Positions 39,413 to 57,637 of a stretch of 64,000 nt of DNA are shown here, one piece after another. The notes beneath the pieces are model-generated. The model searched no databases. It was not told where the DNA came from and saw nothing but the letters and a program-made list of their open reading frames with translations. Source of the DNA: Candidatus Hydrogenedentota bacterium (GTDB taxonomy: Bacteria; Hydrogenedentota; Hydrogenedentia; Hydrogenedentales; SLHB01); contig CAVUWV010000033.1 in NCBI GenBank assembly GCA_963745075.1, forward strand, positions 18,451 to 82,450, in the 5' to 3' direction. The position numbers and the translations under genes are program-made. Position 1 is the stretch's first letter. Every line of letters starts with the position of its first letter.

Positions 39413-41830
39413 TCAATTTTTCCGGATGGGCACCCGCGCAAATGTATGGGTTCGCTGAGCGGCAAAGAGACCCGCGATAAGCAATAGCACGAATATGAAA
39501 GGCCACACCCGGAGGGGCACCGCCGGAACGTCGCCGGCATCGTAGGGATTCGAACCGAGTTGGTTCTCGAGCTGGTCCGAGAACCCGTCGCCGTCGGAGT
39601 CCAGGTCGAGATAGTTGGGAATCAGGTCGCCGTCGGGGTCGGTGCCCTCCGGCGCGATGTACTCCGTCGCGTCGAGAATCGTATCACCGTCGCTGTCGGT
39701 GTCCTGATAATTCTGCAGGCCGTCGCCGTCGGCATCGGTCAATCCTTCGGTCGTGTCGGGGATACCATCGCCGTCTTGATCCGCCGTGGCGAGGTATCCG
39801 TACACCTTGATCGACCAGCTGTTCAGCGTTCCCACATTGCTGCTGATGTTGTCGGACACGTTGAGCGTCCATGTTCCGTTCGGGTCCTCACCCATGTGCG
39901 CGACGGACGTAAAGAGCCAGTTGTTGAAGTTTGCTCCAAAGTCATTTGGGCGAACCGCGGCCAGCTTCGACACCATCCCGCTCGGCGCCGTCAATGTAAC
40001 CGCCAGATTACCCCGATACGGGTGCGTGGCGTTGAGCACCACCTCGACGTGCTCGGTAACGAAGTTGGCCGCGCCGGAAATGGTCAGTGGGCGCGAGATG
40101 CCCGCGGGCGTGTTGTCGGGGATGTTCGTTACCACGGCTTCGCTATTCGTGAGCGGGGTGGCCTCTACGGGAACGTCGTACCAGGTTGCCGAGGCATTGA
40201 CCGCCGCCGCCGCGTCCGCGCGTCCGTAGCCGTAGGTGTGGTTGAAGGTTAACCCCGCGCCGTTGGTTTGCCAGTCGGGGTCTGTTGCATCGACTTGTGT
40301 CGCGGTTTCCGCCAGGATGTGCTGCACGTCGCGCCACCCTAGAAAGGGGTTCTCTTCCAGCATCAAGGCTACAATGCCGGACACCAGCGGTGTCGCCGAC
40401 GATGTGCCGCCGAAGTTGGAGATGTATCCATCGTTGATGGTCGTCGTGGTGATACCGGCGTTGATCCAACTCGACGGCGAGCACGTCAGCAACGACGCGC
40501 CGCTTTCGCTGTAGTAGGAGATGTTCCCGTCCGCCCCGATGGCCCCCACACCAATCGTGTACCGGCTCGAGGCGTATCCGTCGAAGTTTGAATAGTCGCC
40601 GCTCAGACGCCCGTTGCCGCCCGCCCAGCAATAGACGATCCCGCGACCGCCCCGGCCGTTCGTAACGCCGTTCTCGATAGCCGCTTTGGTGAGCGGGCCG
40701 AAGGTTTCGAGCCTCGTGCCGTCGTCGTAGGGGCCCCACGAGTTGCTCGAGATCCAGACTCGGTCGGTTTCGAGGGCCGGCGTGACCAGGTAGCCCAGCC
40801 CCTGGGATTCCTGCAGGTCGGTTGCGGGCGCCGCGACCAGGCGGATACCAATCAGCGTCGCATCGAATGCGGCCCCCGTGACGAGTGTCGCATTGTTTCC
40901 TACTGCAGCGGCGACGCCGGCGACAGCGGTTCCGTGGTAGTCCCCGCCTTCGGGTGAAGCGTCGTTGTCCCCGCCATTGATGTCCAGGTCCACATCGGTA
41001 CGGGCATTCGCGGCGAGATCGACGTGGGAGGCTTCCAGGCCGTCGTCGACGATGGCGATCGTTACGCCATCGCCGGTGACTTGGTCCCACGCCGGGACGA
41101 TGTTCACGTCGTTCCCGGCGACTGCGCCCGGACCCGCACTGCCCTGGCCCGTGTTCTGCAAATGCCACTGATCGCCGAACAACGTATCGTTCGGGACGAA
41201 CCGTTTGCTTTGTTGGCGTTTCACTAGCGGGGTCGCGAACTCGACGATACCCGATTCGTACAGCGCGTTTGCGGTTTCCAACGCGCTGAGAAGCGATGTG
41301 CCGGAAGACTGCACGACGTATGTGTTCGGACTGAATTCCACTTCCTGGACGACGGTAACGGCATAACTCCCCGTGATTTCGTCGATGGCATGTCCCGGGG
41401 CCAGCTTTAGACTGAACTGCTGAGTCAACACTTGCGCCGCGTTGGGTTTCCCCGTTTGGCCCGGTGCGTACAAGACCGCCCGGACCGAGTACCCCGCCGC
41501 GCGCAGGTTCTGGGCCGTGATTTCGAGGTCACCTGTGCTCTTTGCTGCCGTCTTCAAGCTGAGATGCAACGTCCCACTCGAGCTTCCGGCACGAAGCGTC
41601 GCATTGGGAAGCAACGTCTTGATATCCTGGGGATTCGCAGTTTTCGGCGGAGTTACCTCGAACTCGTCCAGTGCAACCACCATTTCCACGCGCATATCGC
41701 CGTTATAGTAGTAAACGGATTGCGCGTTCGAAGAATCTGCGGAAGAAGCACCATTGGAATTGGATGAATTCTGCGCCGATGCGCCGACGCCGGCCGTAAC
41801 CAGAAGTACTGCAAAGAACCCCACAAACAT
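39413..41830 (-). CDS. Secreted S8 serine protease, kexin/furin-like, with P-domain, DxDGDG repeats and C-terminal anchor
   Basis: [39 protein letters not shown]-domain H.Y.G.L.V.L.APSG..GTWTL.V.D. Confidence 0.92.
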
Positions 41831-42132
41831 TCTCAAGAAGATACCCTCCACCCAATGTGCTTTCCGGCTGCAATCATCGCGGACACAAGAGTATACCAGC
41901 ATTTGAAGCGAACGTGCCGGTACACTGTTGACTTTCTATTTGCCGATCTTTCACCACCCGGGAGAAACTATACCGCCGAAAATGGGCGAAATCGTTGACT
42001 TTCGGAAGGTTATCTGGCTAACCTGTGGCCCTTGGCGCAGGGGACATTTTGACCGGCCCGCACAGCGTTTTGACGAGCATTCGTTTTGGCAGCTGCATGC
42101 CAAACCGCTCGAATTTGAAGGAGAACCCGACC

Positions 42133-43251
42133 ATGGCCGACGACGACTTGAAAGCGCAATACCGGACCCGCACCGAAGGCAGTTTCCCGGCCTCTTTCGA
42201 CGCAATGGGACGTACTTACGAGAAGGTGGAGGATCTCCGATACGGCACCAATCCCCATCAACCCGCCGCCTTCTATCGACCTGCGGACGGTAAGAATCTC
42301 GTCCTGGGCGCCCACGAGATCCTCAAGACGGGCAAGAGCGGTCTCTCCCAGACCAACATTGAAGACATGCATCACGCGGTCGGAATCCTGAAATACTTGC
42401 AACGCCCCGCGTGTGCCGTAATGAAGCATTGCAACCCGTCCGGCGTCGCCATGCAGGTCGATGACATCCCGCTTGTCACGGTGTATGAGCGCGCCCGGGA
42501 CTCGGATGCGCAGGCCGCGTTCGGCAGCGTCGTGGTCTTTAATCGGGCGGTAGACGGGGACACCGCGGAAGCGATCATGCAGACTATCGTCGAAGGGGTG
42601 GCCGCGCCCGGATTCGATGACGCCGCCCTGGAAATACTGCAGAATTTCGAGAAGTTTAGACGCAACAAAGAACTACGCGTAATCAAGCTGCCAGATTTCT
42701 CGAAGCTTCCCAAGTTCCTGGACGACGAGTCCGCCGCGTGGGAGATGAAAGTCTTCGACGACGGCAGCATCGTGCTGGCCCAGCCCTACCTCTCGCGCGT
42801 ACGATCTGTCAAAGACTTCGTACCCGCCTATTGCGACCACAAGAAACACGGTCGCATCGACATCGCGCGGCCGGCGACCATCCGTGAACTCGACGATCTC
42901 TTGTTCGCGTGGTACGTGAACATCCACGTTCGGTCGAACGGGTGTGTCATCGCCCACCACGGGCAGACCCTGGCCGTCGGCACGGGTGAGCAAGACCGGG
43001 TCGGCGCGGTCGAGCAAGCCATCGCTAAAGCGCGCTCCAAATATAAGGGCACGGAATCGCTCAATGGCGCGGTGCTCGCGTCCGACGGCTTCTTCCCGTT
43101 CCGGGACGCGGTAGACGCGGCAACGAAGGCGGGTATCAGCGCATTCGTCCAACCCGGAGGCAGCGTAAACGATTATGACGTGATCGCGGCCTGCAACGAA
43201 TCGAGTGCGGCCATGGTATTCTCATTGGAGCGGTGTTTCTCGCATCATTAA
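42133..43251 (+). CDS. purH: PurH-like protein, AICAR transformylase domain only
   Basis: LRYGTNPHQPAAFY, KHCNPSG, AFGSVV, RSN, ASDGFFPFRD, QPGGSVND; no N-terminal MGS/IMPCH domain. Confidence 0.8.
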   Translation: MADDDLKAQYRTRTEGSFPASFDAMGRTYEKVEDLRYGTNPHQPAAFYRPADGKNLVLGAHEILKTGKSGLSQTNIEDMHHAVGILKYLQRPACAVMKHCNPSGVAMQVDDIPLVTVYERARDSDAQAAFGSVVVFNRAVDGDTAEAIMQTIVEGVAAPGFDDAALEILQNFEKFRRNKELRVIKLPDFSKLPKFLDDESAAWEMKVFDDGSIVLAQPYLSRVRSVKDFVPAYCDHKKHGRIDIARPATIRELDDLLFAWYVNIHVRSNGCVIAHHGQTLAVGTGEQDRVGAVEQAIAKARSKYKGTESLNGAVLASDGFFPFRDAVDAATKAGISAFVQPGGSVNDYDVIAACNESSAAMVFSLERCFSHH

Positions 43252-47081: not shown

Positions 47082-47675
47082 TTACCCCTTTTTGGTTTCT
47101 GCGAGCGCTTTTTCGATATCTTTGGTAACGGCTTCGTCCGTCGGTTTGACTTTCGACTCGTAGCGCGAGACGATCTTCCCGTCCTTGTCCACGAGAAATT
47201 TGGTGAAGTTCCACTTGATTTCCCCGCCGGTGTCCGGGAATCGTTTCGTGTCGGTTAGGAACGCGTAAAGCGGCGCCTTTTCCTCGCCCTTCACCGGGAT
47301 CTTGGAAAACAGCGGGAACTTTACATCGTAATTCTCGGTGCAGAACAGTTTGATCTCTGAATCCGTGCCGGGCTCTTGCCCTCCGAAGTCGTTGGACGGA
47401 AAGGCCAGGATCTCGAATCCCTTGTCCTTGTACTTCTCGTACACCCCCTCGAGATCAGCGTATTGCGGCGTATACCCGCATTTGGACGCGGTGTTTACAA
47501 TGAGGAGGACTTTCCCCGCATATTTGTCCTTCAATTTCACCTCTTTGCCGTTGATATCTTTCACCGTGAAATCCAGGACCGAGTGGGGGCTCGCGTCGCC
47601 GGGGTCCTCGGCGACGGCGGCAGGAAGAATTCCCGCGATGGCTAAAACGATGATGGGTAATGACTTACTCGACAT
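47082..47675 (-). CDS. Glutathione peroxidase (Cys type, with signal peptide)
   Basis: NTASKCGYTPQY, FPSNDFGGQEPG, IKWNFTKFLV. Confidence 0.92.
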   Translation of the reverse strand: MSSKSLPIIVLAIAGILPAAVAEDPGDASPHSVLDFTVKDINGKEVKLKDKYAGKVLLIVNTASKCGYTPQYADLEGVYEKYKDKGFEILAFPSNDFGGQEPGTDSEIKLFCTENYDVKFPLFSKIPVKGEEKAPLYAFLTDTKRFPDTGGEIKWNFTKFLVDKDGKIVSRYESKVKPTDEAVTKDIEKALAETKKG

Positions 47676-47792
47676 GGTGGGGATCCTCCTCGGGTGAGAC
47701 CATTTGAATCGTTTGCGTAAGCGACGTACCGTGGAAGGATAACAATTGGACAGGAGATTTTCTGCCGGGAACTGCCGAAGATGAGACAACCG

Positions 47793-48566
47793 TTACCGGC
47801 GACGAATCCACGCTATGGTTCCGTACTTCTCGGCGACGAGCTTGCGTACCGCCTTCAACTCCGCGCGCGTCGGTTTACTGGGAGTTGAATCGACCCCAAA
47901 GACCGTTCGTATCAATCCCCGTAATTCGTCCGGCGGCAAGGTCAGGCTCTTGATGAAACCCCGATGAGTCCGCGCTCCGCGGTACTGGGGTCGATCGGAG
48001 GGTTCCTTGAGGTACCTTTCGACCAACTCGGGATCCATCCCGTAGAGCAACGTGCCGTGGTGAAGAATTGCATGCCGACGGCGTTTTTGGGCGTTACCCG
48101 AAATCTTCCGGCCGCGCACCGCGATGTCCGACGTCCCCTTGTGTTTTGCGGCGACTCCGCGCCGGACCAATGCCTCGCACACGCGGTCGAGAATGTGACA
48201 ATACGAACCTCGAATCGTGGATACCTCGGGGTGACGTTCGTGCGTGAGCGCGAGGGTAAAATTCAAACAGCCGGGTCCTTGCAACACACACCCGCCCGCC
48301 GAGCATCGTCGTAGAATGGGAATGTTGTCCTCGTCGCAGGCGCGTTCGTGCACGTGTTCCCGTAGCGTCTGGGACACACCCAGCACCACGAAGTTGGTCG
48401 GGCTTTCCCAGAAGCGCAGCACTTCCCGGCCACTCGTTTCGGCGCGGTCCAGCAGGACTTCCTCGTACGCGAGGTTTTCTTCCGGAGTCCCAAGGGTCGC
48501 GTCAACCAGCCGGATGGACCGGCCGGCCGCGGATTCAGAACGGGGCGAAAGAGCTTTTTCGTTCAT
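47793..48566 (-). CDS. Lipoate-protein ligase family (LplA/LipM)
   Basis: RRCSAGGCV, KISGNAQ, HHGTLL. Confidence 0.88.
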   Translation of the reverse strand: MNEKALSPRSESAAGRSIRLVDATLGTPEENLAYEEVLLDRAETSGREVLRFWESPTNFVVLGVSQTLREHVHERACDEDNIPILRRCSAGGCVLQGPGCLNFTLALTHERHPEVSTIRGSYCHILDRVCEALVRRGVAAKHKGTSDIAVRGRKISGNAQKRRRHAILHHGTLLYGMDPELVERYLKEPSDRPQYRGARTHRGFIKSLTLPPDELRGLIRTVFGVDSTPSKPTRAELKAVRKLVAEKYGTIAWIRRR

Positions 48567-50001
48567 TTAGCAGGCACAGTTGAGCTGGCGCGCGGCGCGA
48601 ACCTCATCCAAGCGGCCCACGGGCGTCGTCGTGGGCGCTTCATGCAGAACAGCCGGATTCTTATCCGCCGTGTCGGCGATTTCCAACATGGCTTCGCAGA
48701 AGGCGTCGAGGGTTTCGCGGGATTCGGTTTCCGTCGGCTCGATCATCAGACTTTCCTTAACCGTCAGCGGGAAGTATACGGTCGGCGCATGGAAACCATA
48801 GTCCAGCAAGGCTTTTGCAATATCAAGCGCACGCACCCCTTTCTTGGCTTGCGGCGTTGCCGTAAACACGCACTCGTGCATGAAGGGCAGATCGAAGGCC
48901 GGCTCATAGGCCTGCTTCAACCGGGCGAAAACGTAGTTTGCATTAAGTACGGCGTTCTCCGCGACTTGCCGCAGTCCGTCTTTCCCCAGGTGCCGCATGT
49001 AGGCGTACGCACGCACGGCCATCATGAAATTACCGAAGAATGCGGCAATGCGGCCAATGGACCGCTCGGGGGAGGCGAGATCGAAGCCGTCCGTTCCTTT
49101 CGTGATGCGCGGACCGGGAAGATAGGGGACGAGGCGCTCGCTCACCCCGACGGGACCGGAGCCGGGGCCGCCCATCCCATGGGGCGTGGCGAAGGTCTTG
49201 TGCAGGTTGTAGTGCATCACGTCGAAACCCAAATCCCCGGGGCGCGCAATGCCCATAATCGCGTTCAGGTTGGCGCCATCGTAGTAGAGCAGCGCGTCGT
49301 TTTCGTGCATCAACTCCGCGATTTCGGTGACCGCCGGCTCGAACAGGCCGTGCGTGTTCGGGCAGGTCATCATAATCCCCGCCACGGATTCGCTCATCGC
49401 GGCCTTGACGGAATCCAGCCGCATGGTTCCGTCTTCGTGGGACGGCACTTCCACCACCTTGAACCCGGCGATGGCTGCGCTGGCGGGATTGGTCCCATGG
49501 GCCGAATCCGGGATGAGAATGGTGTCCTTCTTGCTGTCCCGTTCCCGATGATAGGCCGCCATGAGCAGGGTACCGGTTAACTCGCCGTGGGCGCCGGCGA
49601 TGGGCTGGAGCGAAACCTCCTGCATGCCGGCGATCTCCGCCAGCCAACGTTCCGTCTCGTAAATGAGTTCGAAGGCGCCCTGGCAGTGCGGCCAGTATGC
49701 TTTGCTCGACGAAAGGTGGGGGTGAAGTTGGGCGAACCCCGCCAATGACGACACAACCTCGGCCATTTTCGGGATTGTACTTCATCGTGCAGGATCCCAG
49801 GGGATAGAAGTGCGAGTCAATCCCGAAGTTCAATTGAGACAACCGCGTAAAGTGCCGGACGACGTCCAGCTCGCCCAGTTCCGGCAATTGCGCCGGTTCC
49901 TGCCTGCACAGGTTGGACGGCAGCTTTGCCTCGGGCACATCGAGCGGATCCAGCGTGATGGCGCGACGGCCGGGTACGGACTTTTCGTAACTCAACTGCA
50001 T
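48567..50001 (-). CDS. gcvPB: Glycine dehydrogenase subunit 2, +1 frameshift at about 49772
   Basis: YPLGSCTMKYNP then frame change to AEVV..GAHGE..AHGTNPASA..NLHKTFATPHGMGGPG..EPTETE. Confidence 0.9.
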
Positions 50002-51275
50002 ACTTCCTCCAAAGCCTTCGCAAAGGCATCGAGTTCTTCTCGCGTGCGACGTTCCGTCACGGCGACCAGGAGATCGTTTGACTCACCGGCGCCGACGGAT
50101 GCGAGCGGGAGCCCCGCGAGAAAGCCCTTCTCGATCAGCGCGGTCGCGACTTGTTCGGCGTTGCGCGGAAGCCGTACGGCAAATTCATTGAATGTGGGGC
50201 CGTCGTTCAGCACCTTGGCGAATCCGAGTTTGGACTTCAGATACTCCGCCTTGGCGTGGCAATGACGCGCTACGTCGCGAAATCCTTCTTTCCCGAGGAG
50301 CGTCAGGTAGATAAGTGCCCGCAACGCGCACAACGCCTCGTTCGAACAGATGTTCGACATGGCCTTATCGCGGCGGATGTGCTGCTCGCGGGCTTGGAGG
50401 GTCAGCACGAAGCCGCGGCGGCCCTGGACGTCCTCCGTGGCGGCCGCGATGCGCCCCGGCATTTTGCGGATGTGCTGTTTGCGCGTGGCCATGACACCGA
50501 GCCAGGGTCCGCCAAAGTTCAGGGGAACGCCGAGGCATTGTCCCTCCGCAATCGCGATGTCCGCGCCCATTTCGCCGGGGGTCTTGAGCAGACCCAGGGA
50601 GATGGGGTAGAAGGATACGACCAGCAGGGCGCCGGCTTCATGGCATCGTTCGGCGAGCGCGGTGAAATCGGCCACAGTCCCGTGAAAACTGGGATTCTGA
50701 ACGATCACACACGCGGCTTCTCTCGGGTCATCGCCGGACGCAAGGTCCAGTTCCAGATTGGCGATGTGGGTCTCCAGCATCTTTCGGTATATCGGATTCA
50801 GCGAGTCGTGGACCACAACGCGTGTTCGCCGTGTCAACCGTACCGCCATGGTGGTGGCTTCAAAGACCGCCGTGCCGCCGTCGTACAGCGAGGCGTTGGC
50901 AAAGTCCATTCCGGTTAGCCGGCAGATGGCGGACTGATACTCGTAGATGCTCTGCAGCGTGCCCTGCGCGCACTCGGGCTGATAGGGCGTGTAGGCCGTG
51001 TAGAATTCGCCGCGCGAGGTCAGCGCGTCCACCGCCGCGGGCACAAAATGGTCGTAGGCCCCGCCGCCCAGGAAACTTACGAATTCCGAACCGTTGCGCG
51101 CCGCGATCTTCTCCATTTCGGACCGTACCGCCATCTCCGAGAGTCCGGCCGGGAGGTTCCAGGACTTGGCGCGCAAGTCCTTCGGGACGGACGAAAACAA
51201 GTCATCCATCGTCTTGACGCCGATCACCGAGAGCATGGCGTCTCGCTCGGCGGGTGTGGAAGGAACCCAGGTCAT
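49992..51275 (-). CDS. gcvPA: Glycine dehydrogenase subunit 1
   Basis: FLGGGAYDH, EFYTAYTPYQPE, REQHIRRDKAMSNICSN. Confidence 0.95.
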   Translation of the reverse strand: MTWVPSTPAERDAMLSVIGVKTMDDLFSSVPKDLRAKSWNLPAGLSEMAVRSEMEKIAARNGSEFVSFLGGGAYDHFVPAAVDALTSRGEFYTAYTPYQPECAQGTLQSIYEYQSAICRLTGMDFANASLYDGGTAVFEATTMAVRLTRRTRVVVHDSLNPIYRKMLETHIANLELDLASGDDPREAACVIVQNPSFHGTVADFTALAERCHEAGALLVVSFYPISLGLLKTPGEMGADIAIAEGQCLGVPLNFGGPWLGVMATRKQHIRKMPGRIAAATEDVQGRRGFVLTLQAREQHIRRDKAMSNICSNEALCALRALIYLTLLGKEGFRDVARHCHAKAEYLKSKLGFAKVLNDGPTFNEFAVRLPRNAEQVATALIEKGFLAGLPLASVGAGESNDLLVAVTERRTREELDAFAKALEEVCS

Positions 51276-51324
51276 GCTTGCTCCGTATCCTTTCTTTGGG
51301 TAATTGCGCTTCGAGGGAGGAGGG

Positions 51325-51711
51325 TTAGTGGTCCTGTTCGCTGACGAACTTCTCGTACGCCGTCGCGTCCATCAGGGTGTCAAGCTGGCTCGCATCGACA
51401 TCCGAGAGTTTGAAGAACCAACCCTTGTCATACGAACTCTGGTTGACGAGTTCGGGTGCATCTTCCAAACTGGAATTGACCTCGGACACGGATCCGCCGA
51501 CAGGCGCGTACACGTCGCTCGCGGCCTTAACGGATTCCACCGCGCCCGCGGTATCGCCTTGAGATACTTGCGAATTCACGTCAGGAAGTTCCACGTAGGT
51601 TACGTCGCCCAACTGTTCGGCCGCAAACGCCGTAATGCCCACGGTATAGGTATCGCCTTCCGCGCGAATCCATTCGTGGTCTTTGGTGTATTTCAGATCG
51701 GCTGGATGCAT
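51325..51711 (-). CDS. gcvH: Glycine cleavage system H protein
   Basis: YTKDHEW, GITAFA, VESVKAASD (lipoyl Lys). Confidence 0.95.
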   Translation of the reverse strand: MHPADLKYTKDHEWIRAEGDTYTVGITAFAAEQLGDVTYVELPDVNSQVSQGDTAGAVESVKAASDVYAPVGGSVSEVNSSLEDAPELVNQSSYDKGWFFKLSDVDASQLDTLMDATAYEKFVSEQDH

Positions 51712-51723
51712 GGTCTTGACTCC

Positions 51724-52788
51724 TTAATTCCGGCAAGTGCCCGCTGTGTAAAAAGGCAGCGGTGCAGTTTCAACAGGTAGATCTTTGGGCCCTGCGGTCA
51801 GCGCGGTTCCCGGTCCGGCCAGCTCAGGTTGCACATAAGCCAGGCCGATTCCGTGACCCACACTGGGACCGAAGGTGCCACTGGTCACCGCGCCGACGGC
51901 CGCTCCGTCATGTTTTATCTCGAATCCGTGGCGCGGGGCGCGACGGTCCGCAGTTTTGATCGGCGTCAAGATATCGTACCCCTGCGCATCGCGCTGGCTG
52001 AGCACAGCGTCCTTTCCCACGAACGGCGTGTCCCACGCGACGAACATCTCCATATTGGCTTCAAGCGGGGAGCGGGACTCATCAAAGTCCTGTCCGGAGA
52101 GGGCGTACCCCATTTCGGTGCGGAGCGTATCGCGCGCGCCCAAGCCGGCCGGCGCGACGTTGTCGTGGGCCAGCAATGCGCGCCATAGTCGAACCGCCAA
52201 GGATTCCGGCACGAATAACTCGAAGCCCAATTCGCCTGTGTAGCCGGTTCGTGACAGGATAATATCGGATTCCTGCCACTGGGTCTTGCAAGCTTGAAAG
52301 TACTTCAGCTCCGCAGCGCAGGGAATCTCGCGCGCCAGAATCTCGCGTGCGAGCGGTCCCTGGATATCGATCTTTGCTGTTACGTTGGTTACGTTCTGCA
52401 CGTTTTTGTGGCACCCGCAGAACAGCGCGGACACCGTGTCGATTGGGCCGGCATTGGTGACGACGTAGAGTTCGTCCTCTGCCAGTTTGATGGTGATGAT
52501 GTCGTCGATGATGCCGCCGTTTTCGTTGAGTATGGCGCCATACCGTCCACGACCGACGGACAGCTTCTGCGGATTGGAACAAACCAAATCGCTGTACGCC
52601 TTGACCGCCGCTTCGCCACGAACGCTGAATTCGCCCATGTGGGAGCAGTCGAAAAGAGCCGCCTTCGCCCGGGTATGCAGGTGTTCCTGGACGATCCCGC
52701 TGAATTGCACGGGCAACGCCCAGCCATGGAAGTCGACGACCTTGCCGCCCAGGGCGACGTGTTCGTCGTGTAGGGGAGTTTGCCGCAT
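51724..52788 (-). CDS. gcvT: Aminomethyltransferase
   Basis: TPLHDEH, FDCSHMGE, SRTGYTGELGFE, GLGARDTLRTEMG; ATG at 52788. Confidence 0.95.
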   Translation of the reverse strand: MRQTPLHDEHVALGGKVVDFHGWALPVQFSGIVQEHLHTRAKAALFDCSHMGEFSVRGEAAVKAYSDLVCSNPQKLSVGRGRYGAILNENGGIIDDIITIKLAEDELYVVTNAGPIDTVSALFCGCHKNVQNVTNVTAKIDIQGPLAREILAREIPCAAELKYFQACKTQWQESDIILSRTGYTGELGFELFVPESLAVRLWRALLAHDNVAPAGLGARDTLRTEMGYALSGQDFDESRSPLEANMEMFVAWDTPFVGKDAVLSQRDAQGYDILTPIKTADRRAPRHGFEIKHDGAAVGAVTSGTFGPSVGHGIGLAYVQPELAGPGTALTAGPKDLPVETAPLPFYTAGTCRN

Positions 52789-52878
52789 AATACGCCTCTG
52801 GATACGCACCGCGAGCCTGCGAAACGCATCCGGTCCGTTACGCGATGACGCAACCCTTGCAACCCATACGCGCCATCG

Positions 52879-52960
52879 TGCCCAGGCGATCGGCATGAAC
52901 GATCGGCCGCGCCGCTTCCCCGTGGTCAGTTCCACGTCGAGTCGCCAGTCACGACGGGCC
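52879..52960 (-). ncRNA. ZMP/ZTP riboswitch (pfl motif)
   Basis: Minus strand reads GGCCCGUCGUGACUGGCGA..CGUGG-aacuga-CCACGGGGAAGCGGCGCGGCC..GCCGAUCGCCUGGGCA, matching the conserved GUGACUGGCG and CGCCUGGGC segments; about 90 nt upstream of gcvT. Confidence 0.88.
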
Positions 52961-53077
52961 GTTGGAAGGCCATACTTTGCCATTGTGGGCCATGAAGTGT
53001 CAAATTTCTTGCCCCATGGGCGGTGGGGAAAGAGCCGGTCGAATTGCGCAAATAAACGGCGCGGAACGTACGTAACG

Positions 53078-57544: not shown

Positions 57545-57637
57545 GGAGAGATGACCGAGTGGTTGAAGGTGGCGGCCTGCTAAGCCGTTGTACGGGGTTA
57601 ACCTGTACCGAGGGTTCGAATCCCTCTCTCTCCGCCA
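57545..57637 (+). tRNA. tRNA-Ser(GCT)
   Basis: GGAGAGA acceptor stem, anticodon arm gcggc-ctGCTaa-gccgt, long variable arm, GTTCGAATC, encoded CCA. Confidence 0.95.

Follow-up and report, generated by a model that had tools for sequence, protein, structure and literature searches.

The ZTP aptamer, its promoter and the operon

A glycine cleavage operon on the minus strand of a 64 kb stretch of DNA from a Candidatus Hydrogenedentota bacterium (this whole stretch is referred to as the window, and positions follow its numbering) is preceded by an aptamer of the riboswitch class that responds to the mono- and triphosphates of 5-aminoimidazole-4-carboxamide ribonucleoside, ZMP and ZTP. Judging from its sequence and conservation, the element very probably functions as a ZMP-responsive ON switch for gcvT. 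In an Rfam scan the window yielded two matches in total, one tRNA and the aptamer itself, which covers model positions 1-86 of 86 of RF01750 (ZMP/ZTP) at 57.4 bits (E 1.1e-6; the gathering cut-off of the family is 39 bits) and lies 84 nucleotides (nt) from gcvT. An earlier note on this DNA had placed a pfl-type aptamer at 52879-52960 on the minus strand, a span that corresponds to the P1-to-P3 core of the match, and had opted for the ZTP rather than the glycine riboswitch class. The comparison of covariance models that it proposed agrees with this choice: the ZMP/ZTP model is significant, and the glycine riboswitch model (RF00504) has no match in the window, was not found in the source genome (150 of 669 candidates scored) and has none in the 41 genomes of the order (73-74 candidates scored per genome). 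No other RF01750 match was found elsewhere in the source genome among the 150 of 847 candidates scored. The element at 52873-52962 belongs to the ZTP and not to the glycine riboswitch class; its score, helices, pseudoknot complementarity, pocket bases and predicted leader position agree with RF01750. The promoter and aptamer features are the following:

52998-53003, minus strand: -35 hexamer TTGACA of a predicted sigma-70-type promoter, GACA core invariant in five of five same-genus leaders
52974-52982, minus strand: extended -10 element, TGG-CAAAGT, 18 nt after the -35
52873-52962, minus strand: ZMP/ZTP (pfl) aptamer, RF01750, covariance-model match
52960-52952/52914-52905, minus strand: aptamer P1, part of the RF01750 match
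52946-52943, minus strand: aptamer J1/2, GGCG, pseudoknot partner of L3
52935-52922, minus strand: aptamer P2, part of the RF01750 match
52895-52892/52882-52879, minus strand: aptamer P3, part of the RF01750 match
52888-52884, minus strand: aptamer L3 core, CGCCU, pseudoknot partner of J1/2

Four Watson-Crick pairs are possible in the J1/2:L3 pseudoknot and four of four in P3, both in five of five same-genus copies, and the segments of the ligand pocket (ACUGGCG in J1/2, ACCAC, and G..CGCCUGG in L3) agree with the Rfam consensus. The conserved pocket bases include a U-G in J1/2 and a U-G in L3, and ligand-pocket residues in the numbering of Fusobacterium ulcerans are U16, G17, C35, G63 and G71 (bioRxiv 10.1101/2024.09.13.612887; here and below, publications are cited from excerpts). 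These residue numbers have been placed on the present copy by consensus position. U70, too, is presumably part of this mapping.

The perfect TTGACA reported in the earlier note is present. The promoter geometry to which it belongs, TTG(A/C)NN followed after 17-19 nt by TGGCANNNT, is shared by 37 of 45 homologous gcvT leaders, in which its distance from the aptamer hardly varies; TGGCANNNT lies at most 45 nt from the aptamer in 40 of the 45. A generic promoter scan of the window does not list this promoter, because its -10 reads CAAAGT (CANNNT type), and the matter was resolved by the comparison of leaders. Promoter spacing places the predicted transcription start at about 52967-52963, just 5' of P1, so the aptamer would be transcribed. 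A sigma-54 reading of TGGCA, made by eye, has been rejected, as the spacing of the downstream GC varies between leaders while TTGAC is conserved. A 419-amino-acid (aa) open reading frame (ORF) running from an ATG at 52983 through the aptamer in the gcvT frame has been treated as a gene-calling trap, because transcription is predicted to begin downstream of that ATG. Further upstream, the end of an ORF with a patatin-like domain (PF01734; 53078-54832, minus strand) lies 75 nt from the -35, and the site scan lists nothing terminator-like in between, so read-through into the gcvT leader is possible.

All four subunits of a split-P glycine cleavage operon, gcvT-H-PA-PB, have been identified above family cut-offs. 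The order gcvT-H-PA-PB-lplA read by the earlier note is confirmed by NCBIfam models for gcvT, gcvH, gcvPA and the larger piece of gcvPB, and by a Pfam model for the lplA-like gene:

51724-52788, minus strand: gcvT, aminomethyltransferase, 354 aa (TIGR00528, 290.7 bits, cut-off 235.85)
51325-51711, minus strand: gcvH (TIGR00527, 170.1 bits, cut-off 115.85)
49992-51275, minus strand: gcvPA (NF001696, 573.6 bits, cut-off 364)
48567-50001, minus strand: gcvPB in two frames (NF003346 matches on both pieces)
47793-48566, minus strand: lipoate-protein ligase-like gene (lplA-like), catalytic domain only (Pfam LplA-B_cat, PF21948, 132.6 bits)
47082-47789, minus strand: glutathione peroxidase-like ORF (gpx), co-oriented (NF007900, below cut-off)

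In this assembly gcvPB is interrupted by a one-base frameshift near 49770, which leaves a larger C-terminal piece above the NF003346 cut-off and a 76-aa N-terminal piece below it. The frameshift is very likely an assembly error, because the gene is in a single frame in 20 of 20 relatives, a near-identical contig of a public run has one base fewer at 49770 (one contig, depth 2.2), and glyA of the source genome (G000:C32:106818-108030) is also broken into several frames. Indel errors are thus present in the source assembly, and caution is due with the genes called on it. The lplA-like gene scores below the TIGR00545 cut-off and above that of Pfam LplA-B_cat; 16 of 20 relatives have a homolog of it within the 8 kb operon stretch, and its product likely lipoylates GcvH. 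The co-orientation of gpx, also reported earlier, holds; it is found within the same stretch in just two of the 20 relatives, both of the same genus, and probably stands outside the conserved regulated unit.

Distribution in Hydrogenedentota and Omnitrophota

Across 41 genomes covering the genus, family and order of the source, RF01750 has 49 matches in 37 genomes. Of these matches, 31 stand 61-213 nt ahead of gcvT, each in a genome of its own, so the survey of related leaders recommended by the earlier note returned a ZTP aptamer before gcvT in 31 of the 41 genomes; the remaining 18 matches precede a short purH (confirmed by Pfam for two of the 18). In the other ten genomes, gcvT is orthologous in six and distant in one, and no ortholog was found in three; among the six orthologous genes one retains a degenerate aptamer and five have none. 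With a profile of the 49 aptamers, 14 further in-group gcvT loci were found to carry the aptamer. Neither riboswitch reached the Rfam cut-off in 40 gcvT loci scanned, seven from within the order and 33 from other groups.

In a quick, midpoint-rooted tree of 112 GcvT proteins, from which loci shorter than 250 aa or lacking a start were omitted, as were four duplicates and one locus truncated at its 5' end, the Hydrogenedentota proteins form a clade with support 100 that contains 45 aptamer-bearing, one degenerate and six aptamer-less rows, and the aptamer losses are scattered within it. The GcvT proteins of L067, L069, L075, L078 and L093 also fall inside this clade, and their Nitrospirales/Nitrospiraceae labels are probably loose. 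The degenerate aptamer (locus L055 of genome G022, 29.9 bits) has changes in J1/2 and L3, and the same genome retains an intact ZTP aptamer before purH. In several of the orthologs without an aptamer (L050-L054, L069) an unrelated coding sequence ends just upstream of gcvT. The purH and gcvT aptamers of G031 are divergent and 3 kb apart. The window itself encodes a short PurH-like AICAR (5-aminoimidazole-4-carboxamide ribonucleotide) transformylase at 42025-43251 on the plus strand (likely start 42136, about 371 aa), which aligns only to the C-terminal part of the full PurH model; no degenerate ZTP aptamer was found before it at E up to 10 in 41300-42400.

Outside Hydrogenedentota, three distant gcvT loci were found with a weak aptamer of 26-31 bits on RF01750, below its cut-off. 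They belong to one Candidatus Omnitrophota family (that of G041), and a variant ZTP-like aptamer of this kind is present in 10 of its 22 genomes, at the loci L153, L154, L155 (= L090), L156, L179-L182, L184 and L185. In this variant the tandem G-A pairs of P1 are replaced by U-A pairs, often with a C-to-A change in L3. All ten variants stand directly before gcvT, and an anti-P3 hairpin of the canonical type plus a U-tract comes after each of them, an arrangement that supports ON logic for gcvT. In a sample of 301 genomes of the phylum, the variant pattern occurs in ten: four before gcvT, three before a pfl-like gene, one before another ORF and two by chance. In the midpoint-rooted quick tree the Omnitrophota GcvT proteins lie outside the Hydrogenedentota clade, among aptamer-less proteins, which suggests that the combination of a ZTP aptamer with gcvT was likely recruited there separately.

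The predicted expression platform

Between the aptamer and the beginning of gcvT, the leader contains the following elements:

52843-52878, minus strand: hairpin A, immediately following P3 (paired in 35 of 35 cells of five same-genus genomes)
52800-52831, minus strand: hairpin B, ending one base before the Shine-Dalgarno sequence (35 of 35 cells paired in five same-genus genomes)
52799-52795, minus strand: Shine-Dalgarno sequence (SD) AGAGG, overlapping the predicted L3 invader
52797-52793, minus strand: predicted L3 invader AGGCG, complement of L3 CGCCU
52781-52788, minus strand: gcvT start, AUG with CGGCA (52785-52781), predicted second invader, complementary to the 5' strand of P3

Two hairpins after the aptamer, the second beside an AGAGG ribosome-binding site (RBS) and without a U-tract, were described in the earlier note; both are present as described, B ending one base before AGAGG, and no U-tract follows either of them in this copy. 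The support for A and B is conserved pairing in the five same-genus genomes, across which hairpin A has two double-sided changes (one event) and hairpin B solely one-sided G-C/G-U changes.

The L3 bases to which AGGCG is complementary are those that pair with J1/2 in the ligand-bound pseudoknot. The extended motif GAGGCG is found in 16 of the 24 GAGG-containing gcvT starts, compared to 6.9% of 1194 genome starts, a background taken from a crude ORF caller, and to none of eight purH starts, and AGGCG is present at the start in 7 of the 14 added in-group loci versus 1 of 60 gcvT loci with less than 47% identity. AGG(C/U)G is present in 24 of 45 leaders, and in these the bases that follow it pair onward into the L3 5' bases of the same leader. 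This covariation of the L3 flank amounts to 24 Watson-Crick pairs versus 15.3 under permutation (p 5e-5), or, for 20 unique combinations, to 19 versus 12.1 (p 0.001), p-values that overstate the signal, the genomes being kin and not independent. A GGU/ACC double change in SD flank and L3 is seen in L116, and in L076 and L078 the anti-L3 strand is retained although it lies apart from the SD core. At the second codon, CGG accounts for 23 of 31 Arg cases versus 8.8 expected from the same genes, and CGG-C at this position pairs with the 5' strand of P3. The five same-genus genomes differ in their spacers and show no variation in the promoter, the aptamer core, the SD extension or the start region. 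The extended SD is also retained in two loci without an aptamer, L052 and L069, possibly as a relic.

It is rather likely that ZMP turns on gcvT translation by freeing the ribosome-binding region from predicted P3/L3 pairing. Shortage of 10-formyl-tetrahydrofolate (10-formyl-THF) would lead to a build-up of ZMP/ZTP, and the J1/2:L3 pseudoknot would be stabilised on P3. Without ligand, hairpins A and B would fold and bring the SD-overlapping AGGCG to L3 (CGCCU), the AUG-CGGCA start region would pair with the 5' strand of P3, and the resulting multiloop would hide both SD and start; with ZMP, the pseudoknot would take those L3 bases, leaving SD and start free. The decision would likely be kinetic, falling during or soon after transcription of the start region, and the downstream genes would follow via translational coupling or polarity. 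Control at the level of translation, which the earlier note had considered possible, is the best-supported mechanism; the predicted competitor, though, is the pairing of SD and start with P3/L3 and not hairpin B over the RBS. Hairpin B alone hiding the SD has been rejected, as B ends before the SD here and nothing ties it to ligand binding.

An anti-L3 strand with a U-rich tail, the signature of an intrinsic terminator that invades P3, is found in none of the 45 gcvT leaders, this one included, and in 8 of 18 purH leaders of the order; on this count a terminator-type platform has been rejected for the gcvT leaders. ZMP might instead act on transcription elongation without a classical terminator, with hairpin A serving as a pause or in a "tug-of-war", or with Rho acting on the untranslated leader. 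A hairpin does start at most 4 nt from P3 in 35 of 45 gcvT leaders, natural tug-of-war ZTP switches have their terminator less than 5 nt from P3 (bioRxiv 10.64898/2026.06.17.733018), and Rho polarity could follow translational repression. However, the count of early hairpins is weak, since shuffled GC-rich spacers also pair early, and tug-of-war switches need a U-rich tract, whereas none follows hairpin A and any U-run is present in only 8 of 45 leaders. Such an ON switch, which we regard as unlikely, would also leave unexplained the SD extension, its covariation with L3 and the codon-2 bias.

Folding of the 3' module of this copy, from P3 to +24, gives L3:SD and P3-5':start helices that enclose hairpins A and B, with 10.7 expected pairs between P3/L3 and the initiation region; swapped controls average 3.1, and 1 of 25 reaches the value of this copy. 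Over all leaders, pairing of P3/L3 with the initiation region reaches at least 4 base pairs (bp) in 30 of 45 in the same module. When P3 is held, the cost of opening -14..+9 falls by 3.0 kcal/mol here and by at least 1.4 kcal/mol in 29 of 45 leaders, and the drop exceeds that of swapped controls in 36 of 45. When the fold is extended to +90, the partner of P3/L3 is the initiation region in 19 of 45 leaders, the spacer in 12 and +31..+60 in 7, which indicates that platforms differ within the lineage. These folds bear on a second alternative, a translational ON switch whose P3/L3 competitor lies in the spacer or within gcvT, at about +31 to +60. For it, the latter two groups, with at least 4 bp each, and the 12.5 bp with +31..+60 in L006, from the genome with gcv-folD, can be adduced. 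It appears improbable for the present copy, in which the +31..+60 bin contains 0.0 bp, and the initiation region is both the commonest partner and the bearer of the sequence biases.

Several observations weigh against the release of SD and start from P3/L3 as the mechanism. When the whole leader of this copy is folded without constraints, L3:SD pairing amounts to 0.0 bp and the SD is unpaired at 0.43 versus 0.44; with 90 nt of gcvT included, L3:SD pairing is 0.1 bp. As this pairing is lost in larger folding windows, it could exist only as a kinetic state. In the closest two relatives (L012 and L027) the opening cost changes by only 0.2 kcal/mol, and in this copy opening costs 11 kcal/mol even with P3 held. 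The plain P3/L3-RBS duplex energy of this copy is unremarkable (58th percentile), its hairpins are not more stable than shuffles (z -0.7), and the whole 3' module does not differ significantly from shuffles either (z -0.32). The purH leaders are coupled as well, with at least 4 bp in 10 of 18 and at least 1.4 kcal/mol in 15 of 18, so the folding measures are not specific to gcvT. Finally, AGG(C/U)G is lacking in 21 of 45 gcvT leaders and kept in two of five aptamer-less orthologs, so part of its signal may reflect descent. The modelled folding support for an SD/start invader in this copy thus depends on the folding window, and a platform of this type is plausible, with comparative support present and folding support unstable.

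The unchanged SD access in two of the three folding windows is also what would be expected if the aptamer bound ZMP but acted as an OFF switch, or if this copy were uncoupled from expression. OFF switches of the ZTP class have been predicted before moeA (PMC9481103), and the degenerate aptamer before gcvT in G022 points the same way. Against this reading, which seems quite improbable and the least likely of those considered, stand the invariance of aptamer core, promoter, SD extension and start region in the five same-genus genomes, the drop in opening cost beyond swapped controls in 36 of 45 leaders, and the canonical ON terminator carried by the Omnitrophota gcvT copies.

One-carbon demand and relation to known ZTP switches

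Glycine cleavage yields 5,10-methylene-THF, from which FolD leads to 10-formyl-THF. A folD gene is present in the source genome and fhs was not found in it (89.7% complete). The output of the operon would pass through 5,10-methylene-THF and, by FolD, to the very compound in short supply. In one relative (G036) folD directly follows gcvPB (L168:2290-3195), so that a single ZTP switch would cover the entire path from glycine to 10-formyl-THF. With 10-formyl-THF in short supply ZMP accumulates, and the ZTP class typically turns genes on (PMC9481103; PMC7484762), with the ligand stabilising the pseudoknot against an invading strand (bioRxiv 10.1101/2024.09.13.612887). From this class logic and the metabolic role of the operon we infer, in line with the earlier note, that glycine cleavage would be turned on by one-carbon demand.

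The ZTP riboswitch class is known, and its gcv target is apparently unreported. The target genes given for the ZTP (pfl) motif in Weinberg 2010 are purH, fhs, pfl, glyA, folD and metH (PMC2864571), and neither "gcv" nor "glycine cleavage" was found in the searched part of its supplement text. In the excerpts of PMC12121620 and PMC9943018, gcv is mentioned only with glycine riboswitches. In the portions of the literature searched, no description of gcv genes preceded by a ZTP switch was found, though Kim, Nelson & Breaker 2015 may list it.

With the transcriptional ZTP models from Clostridium beijerinckii (pfl) and F. ulcerans, the present copy shares the aptamer, the pseudoknot potential and the purine/one-carbon logic, but its target is a glycine cleavage operon. 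The anti-P3 terminator of the C. beijerinckii pfl type is shared by purH copies of the order (8 of 18) and by the Omnitrophota copies and is absent from the gcvT leaders. The ZTP riboswitch of Pectobacterium carotovorum rhtB is translational and has a "remote toehold" layout; its expression platform contains the RBS, and P3 is invaded by the region of the start codon (PMC10996619). The platform predicted here would likewise be translational and of this layout, with the start region as P3 invader. In contrast to rhtB, the predicted invader is split, the SD with the following CG pairing with L3 and codons 2-3 with the 5' strand of P3. It would reach the aptamer, 84 nt away, by way of a multiloop that spans two hairpins, and the gene is a different one. 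The glycine riboswitch (gcvT motif, RF00504) regulates the same operon elsewhere (PMC7266159) but differs in RNA class and signal, which is substrate excess there and one-carbon demand here. Tandem ZTP/glycine riboswitches before serine-biosynthesis genes of Bacillus/Oceanobacillus (PMC9481103) similarly tie ZTP sensing to glycine/one-carbon supply; they form a two-aptamer logic gate before a gene of the 3-phosphoglycerate-to-serine route, whereas a single ZTP aptamer precedes gcvT here.

These results would extend the ZTP regulon to the glycine cleavage system, and a whole uncultured lineage, in which the glycine riboswitch was not found, may use glycine mainly as an on-demand source of one-carbon units. 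They also provide dozens of predicted ZTP platforms from nature that act on translation and whose invader strands covary; in the literature excerpts cited, platforms of this kind have been studied mostly through one example. A variant aptamer that is overlooked at the Rfam cut-off is a further result; no new RNA class or enzyme is revealed. We would give roughly even chances to the broader proposal that glycine cleavage has been rewired from glycine disposal to demand-driven one-carbon supply at least twice, once in ancestral Hydrogenedentota, by a translational switch whose SD imitates one strand of the aptamer pseudoknot and is brought in over two hairpins, and once, separately, in one Omnitrophota family, by a variant predicted aptamer with a terminator. 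As a separate feature, a tRNA with a long variable arm is located at 57545-57634 on the plus strand of the window.

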